Assembly: GCA_963753345.1 (NCBI GenBank)
Contig: CAVWBU010000015.1
Coordinates: 96,001-160,000 of the forward strand
Length of the DNA stretch: 64,000 bases
Direction: 5' to 3'
DNA from: an uncultured Fibrobacterota bacterium
GTDB lineage: Bacteria; Fibrobacterota; Chitinivibrionia; Chitinivibrionales; FEN-1185
Shown here: positions 851 through 38,513 of the stretch, one piece after another
Position numbering within the stretch: position 1 is the first letter of the stretch
How the letters are laid out: every line of letters begins with the position of its first letter
Translations under genes and position numbers: made by a program
Notes under the pieces: model-generated
The model's input: the letters and a program-made list of their open reading frames with translations, nothing else
The model's database searches: none
Told to the model about the DNA's origin: nothing

Positions 851-858
851 AGATAAGA

Positions 859-1298
859 TTCTTGGTGGGGGAAGTATCCCCCCTGCCTGCGGCCCTGCGG
901 TCCTCCGGCACCCCCTCCTGGGTGCTCCCCATGATGGTGCAGCGGCGAGCGCAATACATGGTTGAGGGGGCACCCACGAGGAGCAGTTGAAAAGTTGAAA
1001 CGTTGAACAGTTGAAGAGTTGAAAAACAAAGAAAGAAACGTTGGTTGATGTATGCGAATGCGGGTTGGCGCGAGAAGAAGTAGTTGACTGAAAGGAATTC
1101 TGTTACCGCGCGTTAGGTGGACCGGAGGGTGAGCTAAAGCGAATTGCCGGTCGACCCGGCCGAAAGGCATAGGGCGATCCGGCAACGAGGCCGAACGGCC
1201 GAGCCCGAAGGAAGACCGACCCGACCCCGAGCGAAGTCGAGGGGGAGGGGAACGCCCAATTCTTATCGTATCTTGTAAAGCGGTGCCCCCACCAAGAA
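859..1298 (+). repeat. Bipartite structured intergenic element, copy E1 (module A 864-985, AGTTGAAA tandem linker 985-1024, module B about 1064-1260), bounded by a 13-bp inverted repeat
   Basis: Shares A motifs (GTGGGGGAAG..CCCCCT, GGTCCTCCG, CCCCCTCCTGGGT, GGCACCCACG) and B motifs (CCGCGCGTTAGG, GGGGAACGCCCA) with other loci; TTCTTGGTGGGGG 859-871 / CCCCCACCAAGAA 1286-1298. Confidence 0.9.
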
Positions 1299-1340
1299 CT
1301 ACTGATTGATATTTAAACTTAACAATAGGCAGTGATATCC

Positions 1341-2744
1341 ATGAGCACCCTCATCGACGGCATGGGCGAACAGTGCGGCATCTTCGGGATTTTCAACAGC
1401 CACGAAGCAGCGGAACTGACCTACCTCGGCCTGTACGCGCTCCAGCACCGCGGCCAGGAAAGTTCCGGCATCGCGGTGTCGAACCAGACCACCGTCACTA
1501 TGTACAAGGCAATGGGCCTGGTGAACCAGGTTTTCAAGCATCAGAGTTCGATTGACAATCTCAAAGGATCGAGCGCCATCGGCCACAACCGGTACTCCAC
1601 CACGGGATCGTCCGATCTCGCCAACGCCCAGCCGATTCTCGTCAACTGCCGCATGGGCCAGATAGCGGCCGCCCACAACGGCAACCTTACCAACACCGCG
1701 GCGCTCCGCACCGAAATGGAGAACGACGGTTCAATTTTCTCCTCGACGACCGACACCGAGGTAATCGTGCACCTCATCGCGCGGTCGAAGCGCGAAACCG
1801 TGGACGCCATGATCCTTGACGCGCTCTCGCGCGTCAAGGGGGCGTATTCCATTTTGTTCCTTACCAAGGACGCGCTGTACGGCGCGCGCGACCCGCGGGG
1901 CTTTAGGCCGCTCATCCTTGGAAGGACAGGCGACATTTCGTTCCTGTCGTCGGAGACCTGCGCGTTCGACCTGGTGGGAGCGTCGATCGAGCGCGAGGTG
2001 AAGCCGGGTGAGATGGTGCGTATTGACAAGAACGGAATCCAGAGCTTTTCCATCCCCGTGTTCGAACGCATCAAGCGTCCGTCGTACTGCATCTTCGAAT
2101 ACATTTACTTTTCGCGCCCCGATTCGTTCGTGTTCGGTGAAAACGTGGACAAGATACGGCGGAGGCTCGGCCGCCAACTCGCCAAGGAGCACCCAGTCAA
2201 GAGCGCGGACTTCGTGATGGGCGTTCCCGACTCGGCGACAACGGCCGCGCTCGGGTTCGCGCAGGAGAGCGATCTCAGGTTCGACATCGGGCTCATCCGC
2301 AACCACTATGTGGGCAGGACCTTCATCCAGCCCGTCCAGGCGGGAAGGGACCTCGGGGTACGCATCAAGTTCAATCCTGTCAAGGGCGTTCTCAAGGGCA
2401 AGAAAGTTGTCGTTGTCGACGATTCCATTGTGCGCGGCACCACCATGCGGAAGATTGTGCAGCTCCTTCGCACGGCGGAACCTGCCGAGATCCACCTCCG
2501 CATTTCGTCGCCGCCCATTGTGAGCCCGTGCTTCTACGGCATCGACATGCCCACCAAGAAGGAACTCATCGCCTCGGAGAAAACGGTCGAGGAAATCCGT
2601 AAGTACCTCGAGGTGGATTCGCTCGGCTACCTTTCCATAGACGGCCTGCTATCGGTTGTCAACGAACCGCGCTCGAATTTCTGCGCCGCGTGCTTTACGG
2701 GGGAATATCCGGTTGAGGTTTCCGGCGAGAAAGGTCACTGCTAA
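1341..2744 (+). CDS. purF: Amidophosphoribosyltransferase
   Basis: N-terminal EQCGIFG, LQHRGQESSG, HNGNLTN, CIFEYIYFSRPDS, VVVDDSIVRGTT, CFYGIDMP, CAACFTG. Confidence 0.97.
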   Translation: MSTLIDGMGEQCGIFGIFNSHEAAELTYLGLYALQHRGQESSGIAVSNQTTVTMYKAMGLVNQVFKHQSSIDNLKGSSAIGHNRYSTTGSSDLANAQPILVNCRMGQIAAAHNGNLTNTAALRTEMENDGSIFSSTTDTEVIVHLIARSKRETVDAMILDALSRVKGAYSILFLTKDALYGARDPRGFRPLILGRTGDISFLSSETCAFDLVGASIEREVKPGEMVRIDKNGIQSFSIPVFERIKRPSYCIFEYIYFSRPDSFVFGENVDKIRRRLGRQLAKEHPVKSADFVMGVPDSATTAALGFAQESDLRFDIGLIRNHYVGRTFIQPVQAGRDLGVRIKFNPVKGVLKGKKVVVVDDSIVRGTTMRKIVQLLRTAEPAEIHLRISSPPIVSPCFYGIDMPTKKELIASEKTVEEIRKYLEVDSLGYLSIDGLLSVVNEPRSNFCAACFTGEYPVEVSGEKGHC

Positions 2745-2761
2745 TTTCAGGAGTGTTTTTT

Positions 2762-3184
2762 GTGGGGGAAGGTTCCCCCTCGCTCCGGCCCGTCGCTCCG
2801 TCAAATCTCTGCTCGTTGGTCCTTACGCGCCGGTCCTCCGCTACCCCCTCCTGGGTAGCCGCCTTGACAAAGCAGCTGCGAGATCAAACATTGTTGTGGC
2901 GGCACCCACGAAGAGCAATGGTAAAAGAGTTGAGAAGTTGAGTAGTTGATAACTGGTAGTTGATTGATCTCTTGGGTATTTCGATTGGCGTGAGAAGAAG
3001 TGGTTGACTGACAAGACTCCTTCTGCCGCGCGTTAGGCAGGACTGGAGGTCCCGCTAGAGCGGGATGCCGCCCGGACCCGGCCGCTACTGCGGCATAGGG
3101 CCGAGGCGGCCCGAGGCCGAAGGCCGAGACCGGAAGGACGGCCGACCGGAGCCTGCGTCTTGACGAAGGCTCGGGAAACGCCCA
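2762..3184 (+). repeat. Bipartite structured intergenic element, copy E2 (A 2762-2916, AGTTGA linker, B 2983-3184)
   Basis: Same conserved blocks as E1; lies between convergent purF and ychF. Confidence 0.9.
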
Positions 3185-3199
3185 CCTTGATGATTTGAA

Positions 3200-4270
3200 C
3201 TAGACATTGAAACGAATCGACAAAATATCGCCGTCCTTGACAATGTATTCCTTGCCCTCCATCCTGAATTTCCCCGCGTCCTTGACGCCCTGTTCCGATC
3301 CCGCGGCAACGAGATCGTCGTAGGAGAAGCACTCTGCGCGGATGAAGCCGCGCGCAAGGTCGGTATGGATGGCGGCGGCGGCCTCGACCGCGGTGACGCC
3401 CCGCACGATCTCCCAGGCGCGCACCTCGTCTTCCCCAACGGTAAAGAAGCTTATATATCCGAGCGTCTCGTACGCGACAAGCGTGAGCCGGTCGGCCGCA
3501 GATTCACCGATTCCCATGTCGTCCATGAATGCCTGAATCTCCGCGGCATCGGTAAGCCGCGAGAGTTCCATCTCGAAATTCCCCGCGCATTCGATGATCT
3601 TGTAGCGGCCGGCCAGCTCCTTGACCAGCGCCGGGTCCTTCTTGAACCGGTCTTCACTGGAGTTGACGATAAGGAAGAGCGGCTTCTGGGTAAGGAGCTG
3701 GAAACCGCGGAGCATTTTCTTCTCGTCGGCCGAGAATTCGAGCGTGCGGATAGGCTGCATGGCGGTAAGCGCTTCCATAATTCTTTTAAGCAGCTTTTCC
3801 TCGGAGGCCAATGCCGGCGTCATGCCGCCCTTTGCGGATGCGGCTATCTTTGCTATCCGGTTTTCCGCGATGATCTGGTCCGACAGCAAGAGCTCCTCCT
3901 CGATGGCCTGCAGGTCGGCCGCAGGCGAGGGGGCGATGGAAGGATCGGGCGCAAAATTCCTGAGAACAACCGCAAGGCTGTCCATGGTTTTTACAAGGCG
4001 CATAAGGTCCGGAGCGAACAGCTCCTGTTTCTTCGACTCGTCACGTTCCACGCCCACGAAATCGACCAGCTCGATTCTGGCGTACACGGTTTTTTTCGGA
4101 TTGTACATCCGCGAAAGCTTGGTGATCCGCTCGTCGCGCACGTCAACAACAGCGACGTTCGGTTCAGCTTTCGCCGCGGCGTAGGCCGAGACAAGCGCCT
4201 GGGATTTCGACAGCGCGTTGAAAATGGTGGTGGTGCCGGATTTTGGAAGACCGATAAGGCCGATTTTCAA
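3200..4270 (-). CDS. ychF: YchF/Obg-family ATPase homologue with a degenerate P-loop
   Basis: DERITKLSRMYNPKK, ISFFTVGEDEVRAW, IHTDLARGFIRAE, EGKEYIVKDGDI..RFNV; Walker A reads GLPKSGTTT. Confidence 0.9.
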   Translation of the reverse strand: MKIGLIGLPKSGTTTIFNALSKSQALVSAYAAAKAEPNVAVVDVRDERITKLSRMYNPKKTVYARIELVDFVGVERDESKKQELFAPDLMRLVKTMDSLAVVLRNFAPDPSIAPSPAADLQAIEEELLLSDQIIAENRIAKIAASAKGGMTPALASEEKLLKRIMEALTAMQPIRTLEFSADEKKMLRGFQLLTQKPLFLIVNSSEDRFKKDPALVKELAGRYKIIECAGNFEMELSRLTDAAEIQAFMDDMGIGESAADRLTLVAYETLGYISFFTVGEDEVRAWEIVRGVTAVEAAAAIHTDLARGFIRAECFSYDDLVAAGSEQGVKDAGKFRMEGKEYIVKDGDILSIRFNV

Positions 4271-4420
4271 GCAGGGCTCCTTTGAGAATGAGAATAAGGG
4301 GAGGATGAAAATAGAAGATGCGGAAGAAAGGCAGGGGAGGAGAAACGGGGGAAGAGATCCGCGTGGGCTGAGTGGATAGTATGCCGATGGGTTTTACGGT
4401 GATGTGCGGGGAGGATTTAG

Positions 4421-4588
4421 TGCCAACGTGTGCCGCACTGCCCGCCGTGCCCGCCTATAATCTCGCCACCCCACGGAAGCCACGACGGAGTCTTCGACAC
4501 GGCTGGCTGACATGACGGGTGTCGAAACCGTCATGTCAAGCGGGCATGGCGCGGCTGCGTGAGTTGGTGGCCCGTGTATGTGGCATTT
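4421..4588 (-). other. attC-like recombination site (imperfect hairpin with bulged bases)
   Basis: Minus strand reads GCCACCAAC...GCCGCGCCATGCCCGC...GCGGGCACGGCGGGC...CGTTGGCA just downstream of ORF 4649; internal perfect hairpin TGACATGACGG/CCGTCATGTCA. Confidence 0.65.
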
Positions 4589-4648
4589 GTTTCTTGGCGC
4601 GCGTCAAATTTTGTCTTTTCAATAAAACTTTGCAAAATATAGCAATAT

Positions 4649-5083
4649 TTAGTGCTTCTTGTGCAATGTTATTGTAGGTAAAACCCATTCTCCTTTGGCA
4701 TTTTGTTTTAACGATTGAAGCTGTGCGTTGGAGAGGCTGTCGTAGTATGTTGTAATGCTATCTCCCTTTATCAGAATCCTTAATGGACCACACTCCCATT
4801 GCTCTACCTTGTCGTTTATGCAGTGGGACATCGTGACTCCGCCAGCTCCGAAATTGCCAATTGAATCTGGGTGAGACGGCTGCATCCCTGCAACATCTTG
4901 CGGAGTAAGATAGAAATCAAGATTACTGGAATAAACGGAAAGACTTGGGTAGAAAATAGCTCCGCTATCAACGGCCAAGGAACCCCTATAAGCTATGAGT
5001 TCGCTAGATGTATCCCAGCAACACGAAAAGAAACTAAAGGGAAGAAACATAAGAAAGAGGCCGGAAAAGTTACTTCTGTACAT
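4649..5083 (-). CDS. Hypothetical protein, possible lipoprotein (cassette ORF2)
   Basis: ATG at 5083; hydrophobic N-terminus ending FFSCC; no recognisable family. Confidence 0.6.
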   Translation of the reverse strand: MYRSNFSGLFLMFLPFSFFSCCWDTSSELIAYRGSLAVDSGAIFYPSLSVYSSNLDFYLTPQDVAGMQPSHPDSIGNFGAGGVTMSHCINDKVEQWECGPLRILIKGDSITTYYDSLSNAQLQSLKQNAKGEWVLPTITLHKKH

Positions 5084-5642
5084 TATTGCCCCATTGTTTG
5101 AAATATCCGAAGTCAAGGATAAGTCCAATTGTTAACCCAGATTGATAAGGCTCCGTAAAACCAGTTGTGAATATTTCGAAAAATTCTCCGATTGCCATAA
5201 ATGGAAGGGGCGAAAACATGATATTGTCCCCAATCTTATAAACAGCCGAAGTCTTATTGAGTTCCAAATATCTATTGCTTTCAAGCCAAACACCTCGGTA
5301 AATACTATGGGCTATTCCGATACCGCCATAAACATCGAGCATGAACTTCCACCATTTCCATAATCTGCCATAACATGGCACCAATTCGTCATACAATTGG
5401 GTAGGCGTTACCGATACTTTGTGAAATGTATATGTCTCATCGGCGTGGGAATAAATGATCTTGATCAAATGTTTATGAATTGTACCGTTGAGTTCGAAAG
5501 AGAATCCTGTCATTGAACTGTCTTCCAGCAAGAGCATTTCCGAAACCTTGGAAGAAACCCAAATTGATGAAAAATCTTCGGAGGAATTGCATATGGAAAT
5601 CAACGAAAAGACAAAGATCAGAAATTCAATCATTACTTTCAT
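5070..5642 (-). CDS. Hypothetical secreted or membrane protein (cassette ORF1)
   Basis: About 190-aa ORF in AT-rich DNA, signal-peptide-like N-terminus, short overlap with ORF2. Confidence 0.6.
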   Translation of the reverse strand: MKVMIEFLIFVFSLISICNSSEDFSSIWVSSKVSEMLLLEDSSMTGFSFELNGTIHKHLIKIIYSHADETYTFHKVSVTPTQLYDELVPCYGRLWKWWKFMLDVYGGIGIAHSIYRGVWLESNRYLELNKTSAVYKIGDNIMFSPLPFMAIGEFFEIFTTGFTEPYQSGLTIGLILDFGYFKQWGNNVQK

Positions 5643-5915
5643 TGAAATGACCTTGACATGCGCAAACAAAGATTTCTAATAACTGTGAAAATCAGCGCGC
5701 GTCTCTTCAATGCCACAAACATGGACACCAACTACAGGTATGTCGCGATTCCACATTCCACCCAAAATGGCTTCTTATCCTACTTATCGCCGATGGCAGT
5801 CATACAGTTGATAACAAAACAATTCATGCGTTCCCTGGAAGCAAGGACAATTGCAAAAGCGGACCCAGCGAAGAAAGTGACAAAGACATGAAGTAAGTAA
5901 GTGCATGGTGCCACC

Positions 5916-6071
5916 ACTCTTCGTGGGTGCCGCCTCAGCGATGTATGGTCTCGCAGCTGCTTTGCCAAGGCGGCTACCCAGGAGGGGGTAGCGGAGGACC
6001 GGCGCGTAAGAACCAACGAGCAGCGATTTGAGGGAGCGATGGGCCGGAGCGAGGGGGAGCCATCCCCCGAC
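5916..6071 (-). repeat. Structured intergenic element, copy E3 (module A only)
   Basis: Reverse complement closely matches E2 module A, including both loop sequences. Confidence 0.9.
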
Positions 6072-6176
6072 GAACCTGTTTTTCTTTGATCAAACTCCGC
6101 TCTTTTCCCGTCCACCCCCTTTCCCATTCCAACCGCGCATGGCTTCTTGTATTTTCATAGTGAGGAACCACGCCCA

Positions 6177-7475
6177 ATGCAATCGCCCTTTCCCTTCCGA
6201 CAACGTCTGTTTCGCAATGGTGCGGGACTTTTACCGGCCCTCTGGTTTGTGCTGCTTGTTCCACGTCTGCTCTCAGCCGAGCCCATCGTGCTCACCGGCA
6301 AAATGGTCCCTGCGCTGCTCGGTAAAACCATCGCGGGCCTGCGCGTGACCGGTCGCGCGGGCGCCTGCATCCCTTTCCAGATCGACCAGGTCGTCAACGA
6401 TGATTACGTGTGTCCGTCGGGCAAGGAGCCCAACACGGGCAGCGGCATTCTTGACACGTGCGACGAGATAGTGTTCCTGTGGGATGACGCGGACACTGTC
6501 GAGCCCAAGGGCCCGGCGGGGACGGGGAGCGGGGTCTGGGTCAGAATCAGCCACGGTATTGAATCGCGCTACGTGTGTCTCGTCGACAACGCGGCACTTC
6601 CGCGCTCCACGGTGTCGTACATCGACTACGACGACGCCGCGCAGCTCGTGACAACGCCCTACTACTATGCGACGTTCGGCCGCAACCGGTTCCATTTCAC
6701 GCGCGCGGGCGTCATGGACTTTGCCAGCGACAAGTTCGTCAACGTCACCAACGAGCTGCGCATCAAGATCTTTCTGCGGGCGCTGTGGGGCCTTTTGCCC
6801 ATCAGCTACACCGAAAACAGCATGGTCTGTTTTGTAAAGCGCTACAAGGCCGGCCCGATCCGGCTCATCAGGCGCGGCGATTTTCACCTCAACCTCGGAT
6901 TGTTCATTCAGGGGAGCAGGGCGGCGGTGAACCAGATCTGCTACCCGCAGCTGGTGAGGGTGCCCGTGTACGTCAATCTGCCGTTCCGGTTTAAAACGCT
7001 TTTTTCCGAAGCCTACATAGAAATGACCCCGGTGATCCGGCAGGAGGCCGACGATTTTTCATTCCGCGTGACGAGCCACGGCTTGTGTTTTCCAATGGGC
7101 CGTAACCAGCACATCGATACGCTGGTTGCCCTCAATCCCAACCGCACCTGCATGATCATGAGCAATGCCACCCTCGGCTACGGCTGGCTGCTCGACGCGG
7201 CCATGGCCCCAGAGTTGATTTCCGGCAGCGGGTACTGTATAAAGATCCCGTCGGATCGGGATGGCGCAGGACAATGCGGGTTCAGACTCGGAGTGCGCGA
7301 CCTGCCCAAGGGGTATTATCTCATCGGAAACTGGGTTCTGTTCTCAAAGGACGGAGCGGCAGGTCTGCCGGACGCGTGCGACCGTCTTTCCAATATGGCA
7401 GCGGTTGCGGTCGAGGGAAACCCCGCGCAGATGAACAACCAGCTCGACAGGGTTTTTGCATTCCACAAGAAATAG
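6177..7475 (+). CDS. Hypothetical secreted protein
   Basis: Long ORF with genome-typical codon usage and an N-terminal hydrophobic segment; start uncertain. Confidence 0.7.
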   Translation: MQSPFPFRQRLFRNGAGLLPALWFVLLVPRLLSAEPIVLTGKMVPALLGKTIAGLRVTGRAGACIPFQIDQVVNDDYVCPSGKEPNTGSGILDTCDEIVFLWDDADTVEPKGPAGTGSGVWVRISHGIESRYVCLVDNAALPRSTVSYIDYDDAAQLVTTPYYYATFGRNRFHFTRAGVMDFASDKFVNVTNELRIKIFLRALWGLLPISYTENSMVCFVKRYKAGPIRLIRRGDFHLNLGLFIQGSRAAVNQICYPQLVRVPVYVNLPFRFKTLFSEAYIEMTPVIRQEADDFSFRVTSHGLCFPMGRNQHIDTLVALNPNRTCMIMSNATLGYGWLLDAAMAPELISGSGYCIKIPSDRDGAGQCGFRLGVRDLPKGYYLIGNWVLFSKDGAAGLPDACDRLSNMAAVAVEGNPAQMNNQLDRVFAFHKK

Positions 7476-7491
7476 CGGCGGGTCCACGGGC

Positions 7492-8451
7492 ATGAAGAAG
7501 AAAAAGACGAGGGTCGTGGACTGGGATCGGTTTTCGCTTGCGCAACTGTGCAAACGGATCATCTCCCTCGATGTTCCGTTTGGTGAGCTTGCGGAATCCC
7601 TGCAAAACAAGACGTATGCCCTGTGCGTGGAAGGAAAATGCAGGAGCGCAACGCGCGAACTTGGCCGCATGGTTGAATTCTTCGAGACCAGGCAGGGCAA
7701 GAGCGAGGATGAGCGCCGTGATCTGGCGGACATCTGCATTCTGATTGGCGAAGTGAACCAGTATATCGGAGCGTTCAAACAGAGCATCAAATGGTTCTGG
7801 AGGGCGGCTGCGGCGTTCGGAGGCTATGCCATGCCCTTCCATAACCTTGCCACGTCGTTTATGGAGCTCGGCGACATCAAAAACGCGATTGCAAGCCTCG
7901 AACGGGAAACAGCGCTCGAACCGGGAAATTATTTTTCCCGGTTGCGGCTCGCCGATTTGTACGAACGCAGGGGCGAGGCGAATAAAGTCGAAAAGTGCCT
8001 CGAAAGCCTGCTTCAGCGAAACCCGGACAACATCCAGGCGCTTCACAGGCTCATTTCGCATTACGAACAACAGAAACCGGCAATAAACGTGAAGCTCCTC
8101 AGGCGCCGGCTCCTGTCGGTGAGCAGGAAGTTCAGCGAGATGGAAATGGTGATCGTGGTCTACCACCTGTGCAGGGAAGAACAGTTTGACAAGGCCCTGC
8201 GTTTCCTTGACGTCAAGCTGGGCGAGAATCCGGCAATGACCATGCTGTACCTTCTCAAGGCGCACGTGTTCGGGCGGTTGCACCGGTTCTCCATGAAACG
8301 CCGGGAGCTGGCCCAGTTTAAACGCCGCTGCTGGGGAAAACCCGAGTACATGCAGAGCAAACTTGACGAATTCGAACACGTGTTCGGGAAAAAGGCGGTG
8401 GAAAATCTGGGGAAGATATTGATGGTGACAAATCCGAATATAAATAACTAA
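7492..8451 (+). CDS. Tetratricopeptide-repeat protein
   Basis: TPR-like helices, e.g. FHNLATSFMELGDIKNAIASLERETALEPGN and LESLLQRNPDNIQALHRL. Confidence 0.75.
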   Translation: MKKKKTRVVDWDRFSLAQLCKRIISLDVPFGELAESLQNKTYALCVEGKCRSATRELGRMVEFFETRQGKSEDERRDLADICILIGEVNQYIGAFKQSIKWFWRAAAAFGGYAMPFHNLATSFMELGDIKNAIASLERETALEPGNYFSRLRLADLYERRGEANKVEKCLESLLQRNPDNIQALHRLISHYEQQKPAINVKLLRRRLLSVSRKFSEMEMVIVVYHLCREEQFDKALRFLDVKLGENPAMTMLYLLKAHVFGRLHRFSMKRRELAQFKRRCWGKPEYMQSKLDEFEHVFGKKAVENLGKILMVTNPNINN

Positions 8452-8467
8452 ACAATTAGTTTTCTTA

Positions 8468-8986
8468 GTGGGGGAGGTATCCCCCTCGCTCCGGTCCGGT
8501 CGCGCTGTTTGTAAATCACCATCCAGAATGTGCGCGCCCGGTCCTCCGCTACCCCCCTCCTGGGTGGCCCCCAAGTAAGTTTGTTTGCAAGAAAGTTGCT
8601 TCGGTTGGGGGGCACCCACGGAGAGCAGTTGAAAAGAAAAAGCGTTGAAAAGTTGGAAAGCCAATGCCCGAAAACAGGACATGGGAAACCAAGTGTCATT
8701 GCGAGCGCAGCGAAGCAATCACCCTACAACTTTTACCTAAAAGAACCTTGTCTGATTTGCTGCGCATGCCGATTGGCGCAATAAATATGAATTGACAGAA
8801 TAGATTCCCTCTGCCGCGCGCTAGGGGCGACTGGAGGTCCCGCCATAGCGGGATGCCGCCCGGGCCCGCCGCTGCTGCGGCATAGGGCCGGGGCGGGCCC
8901 GAGGCCGCAGGCCGACGACCCTTGGAAGCACCCGAAGGGGTGGACCGGAAGGAGAACCGACCCCGCAAAGCGGGGGAACGCCCAAT
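8468..8986 (+). repeat. Bipartite structured intergenic element, copy E4 (A 8468-8607, B 8771-8986)
   Basis: Conserved A and B blocks; B carries an extra CCC-GAA-GGG hairpin insertion. Confidence 0.9.
8695..8720 (+). repeat. REP-like short palindrome inside the E4 linker
   Basis: GTCATTGCGAGCGCAGCGAAGCAATC, with ATTGC/GCAAT arms; resembles a widespread REP-type repeat (from recollection). Confidence 0.5.
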
Positions 8987-9012
8987 TCTTATAACTAAAA
9001 GAAACCAAAATA

Positions 9013-10485
9013 ATGTCATCACCTATTCGCGTCAGATTTGCTCCATCACCCACAGGATACCTCCATGTGGGCGGGGCGAGGACCGCGCTGTTCAATTACC
9101 TTTTTGCAAAGCACAGCGGCGGGACGTTTATTCTCCGGATCGAAGACACCGACCGGTCCCGTTTCGTCGAAGGCGCACTCAGGGAAATCTACGACGGTCC
9201 TGCATGGCTCGGCCTTTCGTGGGACGAGGGGCCGGATGTGGGCGGCAATTTCGGCCCCTATGTCCAATCGGAGCGCCTCGACCTCTATCAGAAATACGCG
9301 GGAGATCTTCTGGACAGGGGTTTGGCCTACCGTTGCTTCTGCACCCCGCAGCGTCTCGAAGAGGTGAGGCGTGACCGCGAAAAGGCAAAGATGCTTACCG
9401 GGTATGATCGGCATTGCCGCGACCTAGACAAAGAGGAAGTCGCAAACAGCCTGAAGGAAGGGAAGAAGTACACGGTCAGGCTTAAGGTTCCCCTGGACAG
9501 AAACATTGTGTTTAGCGACATGATAAGGGGGTCCATAGAATACAAAAGCGATGTGCTCGACGACCTTGTTCTCCTCAAGTCGGACGGGTTTCCCACCTAC
9601 CATCTCGCAAACGTGGTTGACGATCACGAAATGAAAATATCGCATGTGCTGCGCGGCGACGAGTGGATTTCGTCAACGCCGCGCCACATCCTGCTGTACG
9701 AGGCATTCGGATGGACGCCGCCCGCGTTCGCGCACATGCCCGTGATACTCGACCCGTCCGGTGGAAAACTGTCAAAACGCAAGGGCGCGGCGTCGGTGAC
9801 GGATTACCGGAACAGGGGCATCCTGCCGGAGGCGCTGTTCAATTTTCTGGCGCTGCTCGGCTGGTCGCCGGGCGGCGGCGACGAGCGCGAGAAAATGACG
9901 CGCCAGGAAATCATCGAGGCATTCGCGCTCGACAAGATTTCTCCCAAGGCCGCGGTGCTCGACGAAAAGAAGCTCGACTGGATGAACGGACGGTACATGG
10001 CCGAATATCCCGCTGAGCGGCTTGTTGCTGATGTCTGCAGGCTGTGGAAGGAAAAGCAGACCATTGCCCCGGACAGGAGCGAAAGCGACCCGTACCTGCT
10101 CGCCGTGGTGCGAATGTTCAAGGACAGGTCAAAGCGCATTAACGAAATCGCTGATAATTCAGTGTATTTTTTTCACGATCCGGCGACATATGAGGAAAAG
10201 GCAGCCACGAAACATTTCACATTGCAGGCGGCAGAAATTCTGGAAATGTTGGCTGATAAGATAGCTGTGCTTGAACCCTATTCCAAGGATTCGCTTGATG
10301 CTCTTATTCATGCTTGCGCTTCTGATACGGGTTCACAGATAGGAGATCTTATTCATCCGACAAGACTGGCCGTGAGCGGCGTGAGTTTTGGACCGGGGTT
10401 GTTTGAGATGATGGAAACTATAGGTAAAGAAACTGTGGTGAGGAGAATAAGAAAGGCAATTGATAAAATAAGAAAGAAAGATTGA
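9013..10485 (+). CDS. gltX: Glutamate--tRNA ligase
   Basis: RVRFAPSPTGYLHVGG, RIEDTD, PTYHLANVVDDH, RGDEW, KLSKR. Confidence 0.97.
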   Translation: MSSPIRVRFAPSPTGYLHVGGARTALFNYLFAKHSGGTFILRIEDTDRSRFVEGALREIYDGPAWLGLSWDEGPDVGGNFGPYVQSERLDLYQKYAGDLLDRGLAYRCFCTPQRLEEVRRDREKAKMLTGYDRHCRDLDKEEVANSLKEGKKYTVRLKVPLDRNIVFSDMIRGSIEYKSDVLDDLVLLKSDGFPTYHLANVVDDHEMKISHVLRGDEWISSTPRHILLYEAFGWTPPAFAHMPVILDPSGGKLSKRKGAASVTDYRNRGILPEALFNFLALLGWSPGGGDEREKMTRQEIIEAFALDKISPKAAVLDEKKLDWMNGRYMAEYPAERLVADVCRLWKEKQTIAPDRSESDPYLLAVVRMFKDRSKRINEIADNSVYFFHDPATYEEKAATKHFTLQAAEILEMLADKIAVLEPYSKDSLDALIHACASDTGSQIGDLIHPTRLAVSGVSFGPGLFEMMETIGKETVVRRIRKAIDKIRKKD

Positions 10486-10488
10486 TTT

Positions 10489-10836
10489 GGTGGGGGAAGT
10501 TTCCCCCTGCCTGCGGCCCTACGGTCCTCCGGCACCCCCTCGTGGGTGGCCCCCAAGGAAGTTGATTTGCAAGAAAGATGCCTCGGTTGGGGGGCACCCA
10601 CGAAGAGCGGCTGTAGTTAATAATCAAATGACAAGAGGTTAATTCCCTCTTTGTAAGGAAAGCGGGGAAAACCTTCTGTCCGCGCGTTAGGGGCGACTGG
10701 AGGTCCCGCTGAGGCGGGATGCCGCCCGGACCCGGCCCTGTGGGCCATAGGGCCGTGGCGGCCCGAGGGCGGAGCCCGAGACCGGAAGGAGAACCGACCC
10801 GAGCCCGAGCGCAAGCACGGGCGAGGGGAACGCCCA
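10489..10836 (+). repeat. Bipartite structured intergenic element, copy E5 (A 10489-10608, B 10680-10836)
   Basis: Conserved A and B blocks; begins 4 bp after the gltX stop. Confidence 0.9.
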
Positions 10837-10876
10837 GTCTTTCTTACTATACCAAAAAGGAAAAAGAGAGAACATC

Positions 10877-12590
10877 ATGACAGAAGAAAAAGTAAATCAG
10901 ATTGCACCAGAATCCGAAAAACCCGCAAACTTCATCCGCGAGATCATCGCGCAGGACCTCGCATCGGGCAAGGTGAAGAAAGTGGTAACGAGGTTCCCGC
11001 CCGAGCCCAACGGCTATCTGCACATCGGACACGCCAAGGCCATAAGCATAGATTTCGGAATGGCCATGGAATTCGGCGGCGAATGCCACCTACGCTACGA
11101 CGACACCAACCCGAGCAAGGAAGACCAGGAATATGTGGACGCCATCCAGCAGGACGTACGGTGGCTCGGCTACGACTGGGGAAAGCACCTCTATTATGCG
11201 TCCGATTACTTCCAGCAGATGTACGAGTGGGCGGTGCACATGATAAAGGCCGGCACGGCATACGTGTGCGACCTTTCTGCCGACCAGATGCGCGAGTACC
11301 GGGGCACGCTTACGCAGCCGGGAAAAGAAAGCCCGTATCGCAACCGCACCGTAGTGGAGAACCTCGATCTGTTCGAGCGCATGCGCAAAGGGGAGTTTCC
11401 GGACGGCTCCCGTACCCTCCGGGCAAAAATAGACATGGCATCGCCGAACCTTAACATGCGCGACCCCGCCATGTACCGCATCGTCAAGAAACCCCATCAT
11501 CGCCAGGGCGATGCATGGTGCATCTATCCAATGTACGACTGGGCCCAGGGCAACGAGGACGCCATAGAAGGGCGTCACGCATTCCCTCTGTTCGCTCGAA
11601 TTCGAGAACCACCGGCCGCTGTACGACTGGTTCTTAAAACATGCGCCGGTGCCGTGCATTCCCCAGCAGCGGGAGTTCGCGCGTCTCAATCTCACCTATA
11701 CCGTCATGAGCAAGCGCAAACTGCTCCAGCTGGTGGAGGAGAAATATGTAAGCGGCTGGGACGATCCGCGCATGCCGACGATATGCGGCATGCGGCGGCG
11801 CGGGTACGCGCCCGAGGCGATCCGCGCGTTCTGCGAAAAAATCGGCGTTGCCAAACGCGACAGCATGGTCGAGGTTGCCCTGCTAGAGCATTGCGTGCGC
11901 GAAGATCTCAACAGGCGTACGCCGCGTGCCATGGCCGTGCTGCATCCGCTCAAGGTCGTCATCGACAATTATGCGGACGGTAAAACCGAAGAGCTTGACG
12001 CGGTGAACAATCCCGAGGACCCTTCGATGGGGAGCAGGAAGGTTCCGTTCTCGAAAGTGCTTTACATCGAGAAAGAAGATTTCATGCTCGATCCGCCCAA
12101 GAAATTCTTCCGTCTTTCACCCGGCAGGGAAGTGCGGCTTCGGTATGCGTATTTCATCACCTGCACGTCGGTGGAAAAGGATGCCGCGGGTACGGTGACC
12201 GCCGTGCACTGCACTTACGACCCCGCCACGCGGGGCGGTGCCGCGCCCGACGGCCGCTCGCCAAAGTCAACCATGCACTGGGTTTCGGCGCAGCATTCGG
12301 TCTCCGCGGCAATCCGGCTCTACGACTATCTCCTGACAAAGGAAAACCCGGCGGACGTCGCCGAGGGCATGGATTTCAAATCGCTCATCAATCCGCAGTC
12401 GCTCGTCGCGGTGAACGACGCCCGTCTGGAGCCGGCGCTCGCGCATGCAATGCCGGGCGACAGATTCCAGTTCGAGCGGGTGGGATATTTCTGCGCGGAT
12501 ACGGTCGACTCAAAACCGGGGAAACCGGTGTTCAATAGGACGGTGTCGCTGAAGGATACGTGGGCGAAGATACAGAAGAAGCAGAAGTGA
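10877..12590 (+). CDS. glnS: Glutamine--tRNA ligase with an apparent +1 frameshift near 11570-11572
   Basis: [17 protein letters not shown] in ORF 10877; [17 protein letters not shown] and FQFERVGYF in ORF 11649; removing one G restores [24 protein letters not shown]. Confidence 0.92.
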
Positions 12591-12605
12591 AATTCCACAT
12601 AAAAT

Positions 12606-12650: not shown

Positions 12651-12683
12651 ATCGGAAACCGCAACCTTCCGGTAAGGCTCTGC

Positions 12684-14353: not shown

Positions 14354-14374
14354 GGTGTCTCCAATCCTGCGATG

Positions 14375-22357: not shown

Positions 22358-22518
22358 GGGAAGCTCCTGCTATGGTTATTAATTTATGTATGATGTGAAT
22401 TGTTGGCGGAAGTATTTTTGAAAACGTGATAAAATACATGAAAGCGGGATAAAGAGCCTAAGAGGAGAGTATTTAAGTGGGGGGAGGTACAGCCTGTCTC
22501 AAAACTCAAGAGAAGATC

Positions 22519-22916
22519 TGGGCGCCCCGCCGAAGACGGCGTCGGTTCTCCTTCCGGTCTCGGCTAAGGCCTCGGGTTGCCGACGGCCCTAGTCGCCCAC
22601 AGGCGAGGGTCGGGCGGCATCGCGCTCTGGCGCGACCTCCAGTCGCCCCTGGCGCGTGCGCAGACGACCGGAGCTTGATTGAATATTTGCAACTGTTTTT
22701 AGGTAGGATAGTTGACAAAAGCGAATGCACCTTAATTCGCTATCGCCGCGAAGCGGCATACCGCAGAGGTTGCGTTGCGAAGGGGCGACGCCGCGCGAGC
22801 GCAAGTCGAGCGCACCAGACGCGCCCCTTTGCTGGAGGGGGTGTGCCCCGAGACCCCGCAGACCGCAGGGCGAGGAGGCTTGGGGCCAGGGGGAAACGCG
22901 AAGCGGTGCCCCCACC
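22519..22916 (-). repeat. Bipartite element, copy E6 (divergent A-like module about 22720-22916, module B 22519-22660)
   Basis: Minus strand has GGGGCGACTGGAGG, GACCGGAAGGAGAACCGAC and GGGGCGCCCA; the A-like part starts GGTGGGGG..TTTCCCCCT and contains CACCCCCTCC. Confidence 0.8.
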
Positions 22917-26284: not shown

Positions 26285-26300
26285 AAACAGCAGTAGTTAT

Positions 26301-26481
26301 TTTGCGCAAAAAATGTTTCTTGACTGAATAGAGTTCCGTTTGCGCGCGTTAGGCGGACTGGAGTGGTGCGCTGGAGCGCAGTACCGCCTGATCCCTAGCC
26401 GAAGGCGGTAGGGACAGAGCGGTACCGAGGCCTTGGCCGAGCCCGGAAGGAGGCCGACCCCGCGAAGCGGGGGAACGCCCA
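26301..26481 (+). repeat. Structured intergenic element, copy E7 (module B only)
   Basis: TTGACTGAATAGAGTTCC..GCGCGCGTTAGG..GACTGGAG..GGGGGAACGCCCA between cmk and rpsA. Confidence 0.88.
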
Positions 26482-26557
26482 TGATTATTTTTTTCAGAAT
26501 TTTCATGTTTCTTTAATCATAATCCATTAACCTTAACCCAGTTTTTCAGGAGTATGT

Positions 26558-28399
26558 ATGTCCGAGTCCGAAGCAAAGGCAAAGAAGTCCCTGTCGGCCG
26601 TTGACGCGCAGGGGAACGCCGTCGATCTTTCCGATTTCGAGGAAACGTACTACCAGGCCGACCAGGTCCAGAACACCCTCGAACAGTACAAGGAATCGCT
26701 CGAGGGAATCGAGGAGGGCAAGGTCGTCAAGGGCCGCATCCTCAAGATCACCGAAAAGGAAGTTTTCGTCGATGTCAATTTCAAGTCCGAAGGCATCATC
26801 CCGCTTGCCGAATTCAAGGACGTCGCATCATACAAGGAAGGGGACGAAATCGATGTCTTCCTGGAACAGGTGGAAGACAGCGAGGGCCAGCTTATTCTGT
26901 CCAAGTCGCGCGCCGATTTCCTGCGCGTGTGGGACCGCATATACCAGGCATTCGAGAAACAGGAGACCGTGGAAGGCCGCATCCTTCGCAGGATCAAGGG
27001 CGGCGTGGTGGTGGATCTGTTCGGTGTGGACGCGTTTTTGCCGGGTTCGCAGATCGACCTCCGCCAGATCCCCGACATGGACTCCCTTATCAACAAGACG
27101 TTTAAATTCCGGGTCATCAAGGTCAACAAGGCCCGCCGTAACATCGTGGTGTCGCGCCGCGTGATCCTCGAAGAGGACCGCAACCAGCAGCGCGAGAAGA
27201 TCCTTGCCGAACTGGAAAAGGGTCAGATCCGCGACGGCACGGTGAAGAACATCACCGACTTCGGCGCATTTATCGATCTCGGCGGCGTGGACGGACTGCT
27301 CCACATCACCGACATGTCGTGGGGCCGCGTGAACCACCCGTCCGAAATCGTGGCTCTCGGTGACAAGGTGAAGGTGAAGGTGCTCGACTTCAACGAGAAC
27401 AAGGAGCGCATTTCGCTCGGTCTCAAACAGCTCACCGAGCATCCATGGAAGGGCATCGAGGATAAGTTTCCCGAAGGCGCGCGCGTGCGCGGCAAGATCG
27501 TTTCCATCACCGACTACGGCGCGTTCATGGAGCTCGAAAAGGGAATCGAGGGCCTCATCCATATTTCCGAAATGTCGTGGACCCAGCACATCAAGCACCC
27601 GTCCAAGATCGTGGGCATCGGCGACATCGTGGAGGCCGTGGTGCTCAAGGTCGACAAGGAGAACCAGAAGATTTCCCTCGGGTTCAAGCAGCTCGAGCCC
27701 GATCCGTGGACGAACGTCATCACCGAGTTCCCCGTGGGCACCGTGGTGAAGGGCAAGGTGCGCAACATCGCCGCATTCGGCGCTTTTGTCGAGCTCAAGG
27801 AGGGCGTGGACGGCCTGGTGCACATTTCCGACATGTCGTGGACCAAGAAGGTGAACCATCCCGGCGAGCTCCTTCGCAAAGGCGACACGATCGAGGTGAA
27901 GGTGCTCGACATCGACGTTGACAAGCGCAGGATTTCCCTCGGCGTCAAGCAGCTTACCGAAGACCCGTGGGGCGACCTTGCCAAAGAGTACTCCGTGGGC
28001 ACCGAAATGGAGGGCGAAGTGGCCCGCATCCTCGACCGCGGCATGATTGTGAACCTCTCGGCGACCGTGGAGGGGTTCGTGCCGCTCAACCAGCTCGGCC
28101 AGAGCGTCAACCACCCGTCGGAGGTGTACAAGGTGGGCGACAAGGTTCCGGTCGAGGTTGTGGAATTCGACATGGAGGGCAGGAAGATCATCCTGAGCAT
28201 CGCCGAATACTTCAAGGACAAGGACGAGAATCTGTGGAAGGAATACGAGGCCGCGCACGTGCCGAGGAAGTTGACAAAGGCCGAAAAGGCCGAGGGTCAT
28301 TCCAAGGGTGAAGAGGCGGAGAAGCCGGAAAAGAAGCCCAAGGAAAAGGCGGCACCGGAAGAGAGCGCCGAGAATGCGGAAAAAACGGAAGGGGCTTAA
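26558..28399 (+). CDS. rpsA: 30S ribosomal protein S1
   Basis: Repeated S1 domains (KNITDFGAFIDLGGVDGLLHITDMSW etc.). Confidence 0.98.
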   Translation: MSESEAKAKKSLSAVDAQGNAVDLSDFEETYYQADQVQNTLEQYKESLEGIEEGKVVKGRILKITEKEVFVDVNFKSEGIIPLAEFKDVASYKEGDEIDVFLEQVEDSEGQLILSKSRADFLRVWDRIYQAFEKQETVEGRILRRIKGGVVVDLFGVDAFLPGSQIDLRQIPDMDSLINKTFKFRVIKVNKARRNIVVSRRVILEEDRNQQREKILAELEKGQIRDGTVKNITDFGAFIDLGGVDGLLHITDMSWGRVNHPSEIVALGDKVKVKVLDFNENKERISLGLKQLTEHPWKGIEDKFPEGARVRGKIVSITDYGAFMELEKGIEGLIHISEMSWTQHIKHPSKIVGIGDIVEAVVLKVDKENQKISLGFKQLEPDPWTNVITEFPVGTVVKGKVRNIAAFGAFVELKEGVDGLVHISDMSWTKKVNHPGELLRKGDTIEVKVLDIDVDKRRISLGVKQLTEDPWGDLAKEYSVGTEMEGEVARILDRGMIVNLSATVEGFVPLNQLGQSVNHPSEVYKVGDKVPVEVVEFDMEGRKIILSIAEYFKDKDENLWKEYEAAHVPRKLTKAEKAEGHSKGEEAEKPEKKPKEKAAPEESAENAEKTEGA

Positions 28400-28441
28400 G
28401 GATAAAATTGGGGTAACGGTTGCCGATAACCGACAACAATG

Positions 28442-28473
28442 AACGGCTGCGAATTACCGCAGCCGTTTTTTTT
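28442..28473 (+). terminator. Intrinsic terminator of rpsA
   Basis: AACGGCTGCG/CGCAGCCGTT stem followed by T run. Confidence 0.8.
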
Positions 28474-28549
28474 GTTTCGAGCGTTGATGCGGCTCCAATC
28501 AAAGAGCGTACAGCAGTGAAGGTGTATGTCTCTCGTTCCGGATGGATTT

Positions 28550-29641: not shown

Positions 29642-29863
29642 AGACGAGTTACCTTGTAAATAGTATAACAAGAAACCGGCTTGGGTGCATGAGATTTTTT
29701 CTATGCCTTGGCTGAGCTTGATATTTTTTTCAAAGGAAAGGGGAACGCCCAATTTTTTTATTATTCTTTTATCCTTCTCTCGTACTTCCTCATAATTCCC
29801 TAACCAAGAAATACTATTTTAGAAAGCTCGCCAACCATGCACTGTCATCGATCGGAGGCGTTT

Positions 29864-30541: not shown

Positions 30542-30544
30542 GGA

Positions 30545-32077: not shown

Positions 32078-32085
32078 GGGTATTT

Positions 32086-33855: not shown

Positions 33856-33870
33856 TCATGAGGGGGACTA

Positions 33871-34629: not shown

Positions 34630-34793
34630 AAGCGTGTATTGGTGAACGCCTGAATCACCAAGCAGCATTTCGCCGGGGAGACATGCAGTGCACGGAGAAG
34701 AGATTCGGGCGTTGACAGTTGACGGTTGACGGCAAATCACCGACGTTTGAAAAAAGGTTTAAGCATTTCAATCTGTAATCTGGACTTTGGAAT

Positions 34794-35540: not shown

Positions 35541-35558
35541 CGTGCCGAAAGGCCCGAC

Positions 35559-38069: not shown

Positions 38070-38094
38070 AGAGTTTCAATAATACTTAGAAAAA

Positions 38095-38513
38095 ATTGGG
38101 CGTTCCCCCAAATGCTCGCACGCATCGTGGTGCGTGCATTTGGGGTCGGTCTCCCTTCGGGCTCGGCCTTCGGCCTCGTTGCCGCTTGTCCCTACCGCCT
38201 TCGGCTAGGGATCACGCGGCAATTCGCTCTAGCTCATCCTCCGGTCCACCTAACGCGCGGCAACGGAATTCTATTAAGTCAATCATTTTGTCTGGCGCCA
38301 ATCGGCATCCACAATATATCAGTAAGGATTTTTCTTGCATTTTCTACTTTTCAACTACTCTCCGTGGGTGCCCCCCAACCGAAGCATCTTTCTTGCAAAT
38401 AAACTTCCTTGGGGGCCACCCAGGAGGGGGTAGCGGAGGACCGGCCGCGTTATTGTAGGTTTGGACAATTGAAAAATGCGGCCGGGCCGGAGCGAGGGGG
38501 AAACTTCCCCCTC
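38095..38513 (-). repeat. Bipartite structured intergenic element, copy E8 (A 38357-38513, B 38095-38303)
   Basis: Reverse complement has all conserved A and B blocks; directly downstream of hisG. Confidence 0.9.

Follow-up and report, generated by a model that had tools for sequence, protein, structure and literature searches.

The eight elements that recur along this stretch of DNA raise the question of whether selection acts on their folded structure, and, if so, what kind of element they are. The window, that is, the whole stretch of 64,000 nucleotides analyzed here (contig CAVWBU010000015.1, positions 96,001 to 160,000), belongs to a 4.5 Mb MAG from the Chitinivibrionales, Fibrobacterota (G000; 94.26% complete). 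Its elements, E1 to E8, were numbered by coordinate in a preliminary description made from the sequence, and are built from two units, module A and module B, the latter being present in seven of them. General background on bacterial interspersed repeats is given in PMC3184786 and PMC2267715.

Organization of the elements

The features of the window are as follows (coordinates, strand, description):

861..991, +, module A of E1 (nhmmer 94.0 bits)
985..1026, +, GTTGA array with an 8-nt period between A and B; also at ~2925-2950 and ~8628-8660
1052..1107, +, conserved block 5′ of B in E1, with GGCGC, TTGAC and GAATAGA-like motifs; other upstream blocks at 2975-3027, 8763-8815, 26291-26343 and 38259-38313 (−)
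1108..1262, +, module B of E1, B1 type (cmsearch 127.5 bits; 1106-1260 by nhmmer); P1 GCGTT/AACGC; CCA end
2758..2923, +, module A of E2, GCCGCC/GGCGGC variant (nhmmer 127.0 bits)
3028..3188, +, module B of E2 (150.2 bits; single-sequence fold −83.7 kcal/mol, z −3.34); P1 3030-3034/3177-3181, P3 3050-3055/3060-3065, P7 3115-3118/3122-3125, CCA 3182-3184
5911..6073, −, E3, module A alone with no B behind it (nhmmer 112.2 bits)
8464..8633, +, module A of E4, GCCCCC/GGGGGC variant (nhmmer 131.5 bits)
8816..8988, +, module B of E4 (109.6 bits), with an additional hairpin inserted past P7
10486..10615, +, module A of E5 (nhmmer 107.4 bits)
10682..10840, +, module B of E5 (144.1 bits), without the conserved upstream block
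22515..22657, −, module B of E6, B2 type (118.7 bits); P1 GCGCC/GGCGC
26344..26485, +, module B of E7 (110.9 bits), between cmk and rpsA
38093..38258, −, module B of E8 (127.0 bits)
38350..38516, −, module A of E8 (nhmmer 142.3 bits)
42214..42342, −, module A without B, beyond the range of the preliminary description (nhmmer 106.1 bits)

Across G000 there were 396 matches to module B and 277 to module A, which together occupy ~2.2% of the genome. The parts follow a mosaic order in which A comes first, then the GTTGA array of 8-nt period, the conserved block of 55 nt and finally B. For 192 of the 277 A copies a same-strand B follows within 600 nt, with a median of 113 nt for the spacer. Downstream of 266 A copies, GTTGA occurred 1.67 times per 80 nt versus 0.03 for TCAAC, and its spacing was most often 8 nt (179 times). 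The upstream block is conserved in a position profile of 281 copies and its motif is present in 180 of 285, while 45 of 204 full-length B copies (around one fifth, including E5) lack the GGCG motif. No covariation was found inside the block, in which one small hairpin was the only notable item, nor did the positions of a possible helix joining the block to the 3′ tail co-vary. Module B also forms head-to-head B2/B1 doublets, which are long inverted repeats of the module itself: of 33 divergent B neighbor pairs no more than 2 kb apart, 22 are separated by 114-119 nt.

Compensatory changes in the helices

The preliminary description had reported compensatory base changes in several module B helices, and all of the variants that it listed are present in the seven window copies. 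The first hairpin is TCCCGC/GCGGGA in E2, E4 and E5, TCGCGC/GCGCGA in E6 and TGCGC/GCGCA in E7, and the next helix is TGCCGG/CCGGCA in E1, TGCCGC/GCGGCA in E8 and TACCGC/GCGGTA in E7. The small hairpin GGCC/GGCC, which is GGGC/GCCC in E5, was likewise found, as was a terminal hairpin of variable length with CCC/GGG closing. The proposed GCGTT/AACGC pairing corresponds to the closing helix, for which the GCGCC/GGCGC version in E6 had been overlooked. The covariation claimed for module A, GCCCCC/GGGGGC versus GCCGCC/GGCGGC, extends across the genome: among 257 copies, this pair is CG 192 times and GC 62 times.

We then extended the comparison of module B to 133 copies in a covariance-model alignment with 39 helix pairs. 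In this alignment 90.6% of helix cells were paired, compared with 76.0% in shuffles, none of 500 shuffles matching the observed level, and partners that had been slid paired in only 35.0-47.5% of cells. Changes on both sides occurred in 28 of the 39 pairs, and 72 further standard pair types were counted across them. The commonest versions were TCCCGC/GCGGGA (41 copies), GTGCGC/GCGCAT (16) and CCGCGC/GCGCGG (14) for P3; GCCGCC/GGCGGC (35), TGCCGG/CCGGCA (26) and GCTGCC/GGCAGC (17) for P4; and GCGTT/AACGC (82) and GCGCC/GGCGC (33) for P1; rarer variants, such as TCGTGC/GCACGA, CCGCGT/ACGCGG and GCGGCC/GGCCGC, are complementary too. Against a tree-aware null that we built ourselves (60 null alignments), 15 of the 39 structure pairs reached E<0.05, versus 16 of 10,839 other column pairs, so the covariation outlasts correction for kinship.

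A structure-blind nhmmer alignment of 183 copies gave 88.9% pairing compared with 41-50% for slid partners, and a long-range pair was recovered blind, namely columns 19 and 108, where 94 copies have TA and 63 have CG. RNAalifold, run on the match columns of the nhmmer alignment, recovered P3 and part of P9 and nothing else; this shortfall is due to indels, and the covariance-model alignment was taken in its place. Relatives in other genera retain the helices but build them from different base pairs, for example P1 as GCGCA/UGCGC. Orthologous copies also differ: P4 at the E5 locus is GCCGCC/GGCGGC in G000 and GCTGCC/GGCAGC in G005, the E4 orthologue in G001 bears different helix variants, and the module A at the E4 locus is GCCCCC in G000 and the GCCGCC variant in G001. 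On the tree we counted 91 double changes, a figure inflated by recombination because the copies are divided into subfamilies and have a mosaic appearance.

This subfamily structure is strong and yields high scores for unpaired columns as well, which raises the possibility that there is no structural selection and that the covariation reflects linked sites hitch-hiking in a few multiplied subfamilies, together with alignment bias. The 16 non-structure pairs that pass the tree-aware null and the bias of a model-based alignment towards its own model would both fit such an account. However, the far higher passing rate among structure pairs, the additional standard pair types with complementary minor variants, the pairing in the structure-blind alignment and the retention of helices with other base pairs in other genera all argue against it; it is already disfavored, and we consider it highly improbable. 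The helix variants, the tree-aware null, the structure-blind alignment, the other genera and the orthologous copies thus support the earlier proposal that selection acts on the structure of module B and not on its sequence alone.

Fold, strand and ends of module B

Module B is a non-coding unit of about 140-195 nt with at least eight helices (10 in the covariance model, one of them long-range). Its 5-bp closing helix, P1, is followed by an unpaired CCA; P1b is a short helix, and the long-range P2 is broken by a conserved purine loop, GGA/GGA or GGA/GAA. The remainder consists of two hairpins (P3 and P7), the P4-P6 arm, which is long and bulged, and the variable terminal hairpin P9, which is predicted to stack beside P1. 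Junction bases are conserved and purine-purine (G-A) mismatch motifs are present. The core shared across genera reads GCG..AGG...GAC.GGAGG ... CC.GAAGGA...CCGACC ... CGCCCA; in an alignment of 20 rows with seven other genomes represented, 18 keep CGCCCA. Of 133 copies, 126 have CCA directly after P1; beyond it conservation stops and T/C-rich sequence begins.

For 158 of 206 module B copies, folding is more favorable on the given strand than on its complement, by 2.8 kcal/mol on average, and the non-standard cells among the 133 copies are G-A/A-G in 187 cases versus C-T/T-C in 10. G-T and A-C cells are near balance (114 vs 82), so that wobble pairs leave the strand undecided. For module A, the opposite strand folds better in 149 of 199 copies, a result at odds with a single A-to-B transcript. 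A coding reading of module B was rejected, since no frame is steadily open and lengths modulo 3 are 66/75/65.

Insertion sites and spread among relatives

Comparison of matching loci shows that the element is inserted relative to its relatives. The E1 site is short or otherwise filled in G003, G005, G002 and G004. The E7 element is missing at the matching site in L001, L024 and L040, this site being empty in L001 and L024, while E6 is shared with L040 at the matching place. E5 has orthologues in G001 and G005, its module A in G001 being reduced to the first hairpin alone; judged from coordinates, the E5 intergenic region is ~390 nt in G000 compared with a few tens of nt in G003. No target-site duplication was seen between filled and empty sites, where divergence of the flanks keeps the junctions from being located.

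Within the genus, four of the five other species have at least 48 matches each and G003 has none. Across the phylum, a match was found in 27 of 151 sampled genomes, almost all of them from this order, throughout which weaker multi-copy relatives occur. The sequencing runs listed for the stretch (10, all DNA, from four studies) included four in which depth over the elements was tens of times that of the flanks; contigs break at the repeats, and those of these four runs gave no clean filled-versus-empty joint.

Searches for partner genes and known families

At gathering score, Rfam 15, whose families include TwoAYGGAY (RF01731), HEARO and the IS605-orfB motifs, gave no match in the whole window, and at E≤1 over 800-11000 its sole match was hammerhead HH9 at 6933-7000, outside the elements (19.8 bits; gathering 52). 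G000 contained no match to the Y1 (RAYT) transposase PF01797, for which control matches were obtained in 6 of 14 genomes, nor to the TnpB-type PF07282 or the reverse transcriptase PF00078. No multi-copy protein family was found in the genome, its largest near-identical cluster having five members. Insertion sequences are often absent from MAGs. The six ORFs between A and B copies that lie 1.5-2.0 kb apart are ordinary, unrelated genes with no transposase by Pfam, and the neighbors of low-copy relatives in other genera are also unrelated, with one DDE transposase at one locus (L140). Viral contigs gave no matches to a B pattern.

Several known classes were considered and set aside on these grounds. 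A REP/BIME would be expected to be a single 20-40 nt palindrome accompanied by a RAYT gene, which does not describe a 140-195 nt unit with a 10-helix model and no such gene; a MITE parent insertion sequence was rejected given the lack of a transposase between distant A and B and of a multi-copy protein family; and an IS200/IS605 omega RNA and a retroelement-borne RNA (SINE-like, retron or group II intron) were rejected on the absence of PF07282 and PF00078 matches in G000, respectively. A tRNA cloverleaf was rejected because ARAGORN found no tRNA gene in the window, and Fibro-purF is a different motif. The literature searched on Chitinivibrionia repeats and on Fibrobacteres non-coding RNA motifs gave no description of the element. 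The trait of a generic structured non-coding RNA, significant covariation in several helices, is present in module B, as is one tRNA-like trait, the unpaired 3′ CCA past the closing stem.

Genomic context

Context was counted from our own gene calls, and the counts are rough because the caller (the second used) covers only 75% of the genome, the first having covered 65%. On these calls, the stop codon of a co-oriented gene precedes the start of A by a median of 22 nt (n = 177), and in tandem gene contexts the co-oriented copies outnumber the others, 107 vs 34 for A and 116 vs 67 for B. The 67 B copies opposing both neighboring genes indicate that orientation is a bias and not a rule. Terminator-like sites were not enriched over 700-11000 (10 vs 13.5 expected), and reading the B end as an intrinsic terminator was rejected, since a hairpin with a T run was found at one B end only in that range (10819-10835). 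Sigma-70, sigma-54, ECF-type and Bacteroidota-type promoter readings of the upstream block, as well as an IHF site, were judged by eye to have unfit spacing.

Possible nature of module B

On balance, we favor the reading that module B belongs to a family of interspersed, non-coding intergenic elements that is specific to this lineage, and that it functions through the compact folding of a single strand, most probably RNA. Such an element would be transcribed with its neighboring genes or from its conserved upstream block, and its junction core may be recognized by a protein or nuclease. It could serve or exploit the biology of transcript ends, through stabilization, processing or punctuation between genes, and might multiply as a non-autonomous selfish element via a trans-acting factor, its copies often recombining. 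A more specific version, which we consider quite unlikely, is that B is no passive repeat but a working RNA part, a tRNA-like or ribozyme-like module with a conserved junction core, P9 stacked on P1 and a free CCA, cut from transcripts by RNase P or another nuclease, with a SINE-like spread across the order and with A and the B2 form as divergent partners; ~400 transcription units would therefore be punctuated or insulated.

Alternatively, the module may act at the DNA level as a MITE- or REP-like mobile element, its hairpins forming in single-stranded DNA while it is replicated or transposed and serving a transposase as recognition signals, in the manner of IS200/IS605 or REP-RAYT systems, with any RNA being incidental. 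The hundreds of copies, patchy even inside one genus, their variable presence at orthologous sites, the fixed-distance doublets that look like long inverted repeats and a weak terminal similarity of 6-7 nt (TTGGCG in the upstream block, CGCCCAA at the end of B), at positions that do not co-vary, would all be consistent with this, and tandem G-A mismatches are stable in DNA as well. Nonetheless, the genome yielded none of the three enzyme genes sought and no protein family in many copies, ordinary and unrelated genes lie between widely separated A and B copies as well as next to the low-copy relatives, target-site duplications were not seen at sites whose diverged flanks obscure the junctions, and, to our knowledge, transposase hairpin signals need less than a junction-conserved fold of eight helices with a long-range pairing. 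We regard a DNA-level element as unlikely. Less likely still is that B and its upstream block form an independent small-RNA gene driven by a promoter of its own, the A-B and B2-B1 arrangements being divergently transcribed pairs. It would account for an upstream block that is conserved in sequence without covariation and that, between G000 and G001, is more conserved than the B body, for the sharp end of conservation at CCA, and for doublets at a fixed distance; but a simple pattern scan found no sigma-70-like hexamer pair in the block, about one fifth of full-length copies lack the block, no canonical terminator follows B, and we know of no precedent for ~400 genes for one small RNA. The Pseudomonas TwoAYGGAY RNAs likewise form divergent doublets, in favor of such a gene.

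Module B is a well-supported motif that Rfam does not contain. Known bacterial interspersed repeats that fold are mostly simple palindromes, and module B stands apart with its 150 nt, many helices and conserved junction core, and because its relatives occur throughout an order of uncultured bacteria from peat and sediment. Its elements fill intergenic regions that stay short in a sister species; in practice, such repeats break assemblies, swell intergenic length and confuse gene calling in MAGs of this kind.

Comparison with known systems

BOX elements of Streptococcus pneumoniae and BIME/REP of enterobacteria are modular intergenic mosaics, enriched at gene 3′ ends, predicted to fold and present in 100 to several hundred copies. 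Module B resembles both in being part of a folding, multi-repeat intergenic mosaic of high copy number. However, a REP comprises one hairpin of ~35 nt and depends on a RAYT gene, none of which was found in G000, and the BOX modules are unrelated to module B in sequence; we know of none in either group with an eight-helix fold and conserved junction bases. The guide-RNA scaffolds of IS200/IS605 elements (TnpB and IscB omega RNAs) are structured RNAs of ~150 nt at the end of a mobile element, and their gene-less derivatives allow the RNA to outnumber the protein gene. Module B is of similar size, but it has no variable unpaired guide segment, its neighboring genes are unrelated and its genome has no TnpB-type domain. 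In a tRNA-like minihelix, an acceptor stem stacked on a hairpin carries a 3′ CCA; module B similarly has P1 directly 3′ of P9 on one strand with a near-invariant CCA after it, whereas its P1 is 5 bp long, it lacks a discriminator base and its other helices do not form a cloverleaf.

The closest parallel is with TwoAYGGAY (RF01731) of Pseudomonas, which a recent preprint describes as a multi-hairpin, covarying element of tens to 202 copies per genome, whose copy number differs widely between close strains and whose function is unknown (bioRxiv 10.64898/2026.09.22.753630). The same source reports frequent divergent doublets at a median distance of 249 bp and a fixed-orientation short-repeat array upstream, with larger repeats alongside. 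The covarying multi-hairpin fold, the many copies, the large differences in copy number between close relatives, the divergent doublets, the upstream short-repeat array and the larger repeats alongside are common to both. On the other hand, module B has no sequence or model match to TwoAYGGAY and no AYGGAY loops, belongs to another phylum and reaches ~400 copies; its doublets keep a fixed distance of 114-119 nt, and the consulted part of the preprint describes no counterpart of the module A partner or the CCA end. Together they make two cases of multi-copy structured elements with divergent doublets beside short-repeat arrays, a parallel that hints at a wider class yet to be explained.

Organisation and abundance of the composite repeats

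A repeat scan of the window revealed composite intergenic repeats in which, read in the direction of the repeats, module A (~165 nt) is followed by a GTTGA run, a conserved block of ~55 nt and module B (~140-195 nt, starting GCGTTAGG and ending GGGAACGCCCA); the window contains seven copies of each module. The source genome, G000, is an assembly of 4,516,072 bases in 55 contigs that is 94.26% complete (window, G000:C15:96001-160000). Iterated nhmmer searches of it gave 396 matches to module B, 266 of which extend to the end of the model, and 277 matches to module A, 265 of them full length. The 99 B matches that break off near model position 120 are in reality full-length and belong to a second subfamily, B2, which has the closing helix GCGCC/GGCGC (91 of 99) and a terminal hairpin of the CCGCCGCCG...CGGCGG type. 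Together, the two modules account for 99,865 bases, or 2.2% of the genome.

Of the 277 A copies, 192 have a module B copy downstream on their own strand, at most 600 nt away, with a median spacer of 113 nt. The GTTGA words after A recur with an 8-nt period on one strand only (1.67 vs 0.03 per 80 nt; background ~0.2 per 145 nt). Neighbouring B copies at most 2 kb apart form 43 tandem, 33 divergent and 14 convergent pairs; 22 of the divergent pairs are spaced 114-119 nt, these doublets typically combining B2 on one strand with B1, the subfamily closed by GCGTT/AACGC, on the other, while convergent pairs are all at least 669 nt apart.

Some A-B spacers contain a small hairpin repeat, GTCATTGCGAGCGCAGCGAAGCAATC, seen at window 8690-8730, in several more A-B spacers of G000, and in a congeneric species (G004, L126) at the site of E1, the first of the window elements E1-E8; these are numbered by coordinate, and E3 consists of module A alone. 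Conservation often continues beyond B2-type copies into an additional stretch, GATCTTCTCTTGAGTTTTGAGACAGGCTG...CTTCCCCC (window 22440-22515, minus strand, and after many B2 copies outside the window), possibly one more module of the mosaic. Upstream of E6, a GC-rich, module-A-like stretch, GGTGGGGGCACCGCTTCGCGTTTCCCCC, lies at 22780-22910 (minus strand), where the module A profile gives no match.

Module B has a conserved fold supported by covariation

Watson-Crick-type pairs ranked top by mutual information in a structure-blind nhmmer alignment of 183 distinct full-length copies, among them a long-range pair, 19-108 (TA 94, CG 63), and columns 23-104 (GC 164, AT 15). A nested model drawn from these values and the window copies was made into a covariance model, R1. 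Its helices are P1, which closes the fold, P1b, P2, P3, P4-P6 as one long bulged arm, P7 and the base of P9, with P2 divided by a loop of purines (GGA/GGA or GGA/GAA). Searching the window and 20 further 20-kb segments of G000 with R1 yielded 133 copies, in 126 of which an unpaired CCA follows P1; conservation ends exactly there.

The helix variants listed in the preliminary description were each found at their place in the window copies, and the closing helix GCGTT/AACGC is as described there, although a change to GCGCC/GGCGC in E6 had been overlooked. Among the 133 copies, standard pairs fill 90.6% of 5,026 helix cells, compared with an average of 76.0% in 500 shuffles, none of which reached the observed value, and with 35.0-47.5% when the 3′ partners were slid by 1-3 columns; changes on both sides occur in 28 of the 39 pairs. 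Since the repeat copies are related and the alignment had been fitted to the model, two controls were added. The first, a self-made test resembling R-scape, combined a FastTree tree, Fitch reconstruction and a G-test with APC correction against 60 null alignments, in which the tree and the number of substitutions on each branch were preserved and the substitutions were scattered over columns. With phylogeny thus accounted for, under which the covariation might have vanished, 15 of 39 structure pairs remained significant (E<0.05; in P1, P1b, P3, P4, P5, P6 with one pair, P7 and P9). The same threshold was passed by 16 of 10,839 non-structure pairs, mostly neighbouring columns, with 120-132 and 121-131 extending P9. 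In the second control, a structure-blind nhmmer alignment, 88.9% of cells were paired vs 41-50% when slid. The helix variants are complementary as sets, down to minor ones such as TCGTGC/GCACGA and CCGCGT/ACGCGG. The pairing tests, the tree-aware null and the structure-blind alignment therefore support the earlier inference that structure is under selection.

Identical P3 and P4 variants are found in B1 and B2 alike, which points to recombination between copies, so that the tally of 91 double changes along the branches of the tree overstates the independent events. A count independent of recombination, that of distinct standard pair types, gave 72 beyond the first over the 39 pairs. Module A covaries too, as had been proposed: among 257 copies, columns 103-143 hold CG in 192 and GC in 62, columns 30-78 GC in 180 and AT in 29, and columns 10-19 GC in 237 and AT in 16.

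Strand and nature of the folded molecule

In 158 of 206 module B copies the given strand gives a better fold than the complementary one, and the non-standard helix cells of the module comprise 187 G-A or A-G vs 10 C-T or T-C, including a tandem G-A variant of P3 (GTGAGC/GCGAAT) in 23 copies; the G-T (114) and A-C (82) cells do not decide the strand. No reading frame is open throughout module B, and its lengths are evenly spread modulo 3. The folding bias, the G-A cells, the lack of a coding frame and the end of conservation at CCA fit a single-stranded, strand-specific molecule, which we infer to be RNA. In module A, by contrast, the complement of the given strand has the better fold in 149 of 199 copies, although G-T occurs on the given strand at several covarying pairs.

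Flanks and gene context

Sequence conservation extends over the 55 nt upstream of module B (GGCGC, TTGAC, GAATAGATTTC, TGCCGCGCG), the motif of this block being present in 180 of 285 copies; within it, one small hairpin was the only covariation found. Downstream of B the sequence is T/C-rich. Simple scans detected no sigma-70-like site in the upstream block and no excess of terminators.

Gene context was taken from rough, self-made gene calls covering 75% of the genome. Where the preceding gene has the same orientation, its stop lies a median of 22 nt before module A (n=177). The median distance from the end of module B to the following gene is 34 nt where that gene is convergent, measured to its end (n=188), and 97 nt where it is co-oriented (n=176). 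In tandem gene pairs, where alone orientation is informative, co-oriented copies outnumber opposite ones (A, 107 vs 34; B, 116 vs 67), and 114 of the 353 B copies with both neighbours called lie in convergent intergenic regions. In a single case, an endonuclease/exonuclease/phosphatase family gene (L101:385-1569; G000:C47:84184-85368) separates an A copy from a B copy 1.9 kb away.

The gene after E1 (1332-2744, plus strand) shows an N-terminal CGIFG motif in alignment, by which it may be purF. The Fibro-purF RNA motif is known upstream of purF in Fibrobacter (PMC7668255); an Rfam 15 search found none at this gene.

Distribution and mobility

R1 matched 17 of 61 genomes, G000 included. Four of the five other species of the genus have at least 48 matches each, while G003 (99% complete) has none; the other two genera of the family have none (0/2), and weaker matches (1-18) occur in several further genera of the order. 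A second covariance model, R2, built from 20 rows including seven relatives from other genomes, matched 27 of the 151 genomes sampled from the phylum, nearly all of the 27 being from the same order, with up to 18 of 21 scored candidates matching in single genomes of other genera and 3 of 55 genomes, all weakly, in the large family f10. These relatives retain the helices with other pairs, as well as the unpaired core, and the genes beside them in other genera have nothing in common. Module B is essentially confined to one order of Fibrobacterota.

The rpsA gene (ribosomal protein S1; window 26558-28399) has its best relatives in L040 (Chitinivibrionales bacterium, 98%), then L001 (Fibrobacteres bacterium) and L024 (uncultured Fibrobacterota bacterium), both 92%, followed by Chitinispirillaceae records; three repeats within it (27359-27970; 261-nt spacing, 64-73% identity) are ordinary S1 domains. 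The cmk-rpsA gap measures ~20-30 nt in L001 and L024 and holds E7 and its upstream block in the window. In L040 (6990-7120), it holds a different repeat of ~60-95 nt, with ~10 copies in G000, so that the same intergenic site has been filled by two repeat families.

The E1 composite (~460 nt) is without counterpart in the sister species compared (G002-G005): its site measures ~25 nt in G003 and holds ~90-100 nt of unrelated sequence in G005 and G002 and ~290 nt of other sequence in G004. E5 is common to G000, G001 and G005, lacking the body of A and having a different terminal hairpin in G001, and showing paired changes in P3 and P4 in G005. E4 is shared with G001, where A and B are both other subfamily variants between similar flanks and upstream block. 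No target duplication was seen at the compared sites, where exact junctions cannot be placed. Module B is mobile, or at least copied, with a putative function and a putative copying agent.

The DNA sequencing runs that contain the window come, by their labels, from metagenomes of peat, freshwater sediment and soil. Several small contigs of G000 (C4, C5, C39, C43 and others) duplicate parts of larger ones at 70% protein identity or more, and probably stem from strain variants or from a sister population that entered the assembly during binning (contamination 4.79%).

Comparison with known systems

Module B is a new, well-supported family of structured elements. Rfam 15 gave no match to the elements, and the module B pattern gave none in viral contigs. 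G000 contains no multi-copy protein family, and searches of it for a Y1 transposase, a TnpB-type domain and a reverse transcriptase found none, metagenome-assembled genomes often lacking insertion sequences; in this genome, REP-RAYT, omega-RNA and retroelement membership is not supported. For a MITE, no parent insertion sequence was found, and terminal similarity amounts to 6-7 nt between the upstream block (TTGGCG) and the end of B (CGCCCAA), at positions that do not covary. REP/BIME, BOX, Correia and ERIC elements are intergenic, modular and folding like module B, but simpler. The nearest parallel in the sources consulted, a likeness in organisation, is the extended TwoAYGGAY element of Pseudomonas, of unknown function. 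It is multi-copy within genomes, covaries and forms divergent doublets, and it is preceded by arrays of short repeats in fixed orientation and accompanied by larger repeats (bioRxiv 10.64898/2026.09.22.753630).
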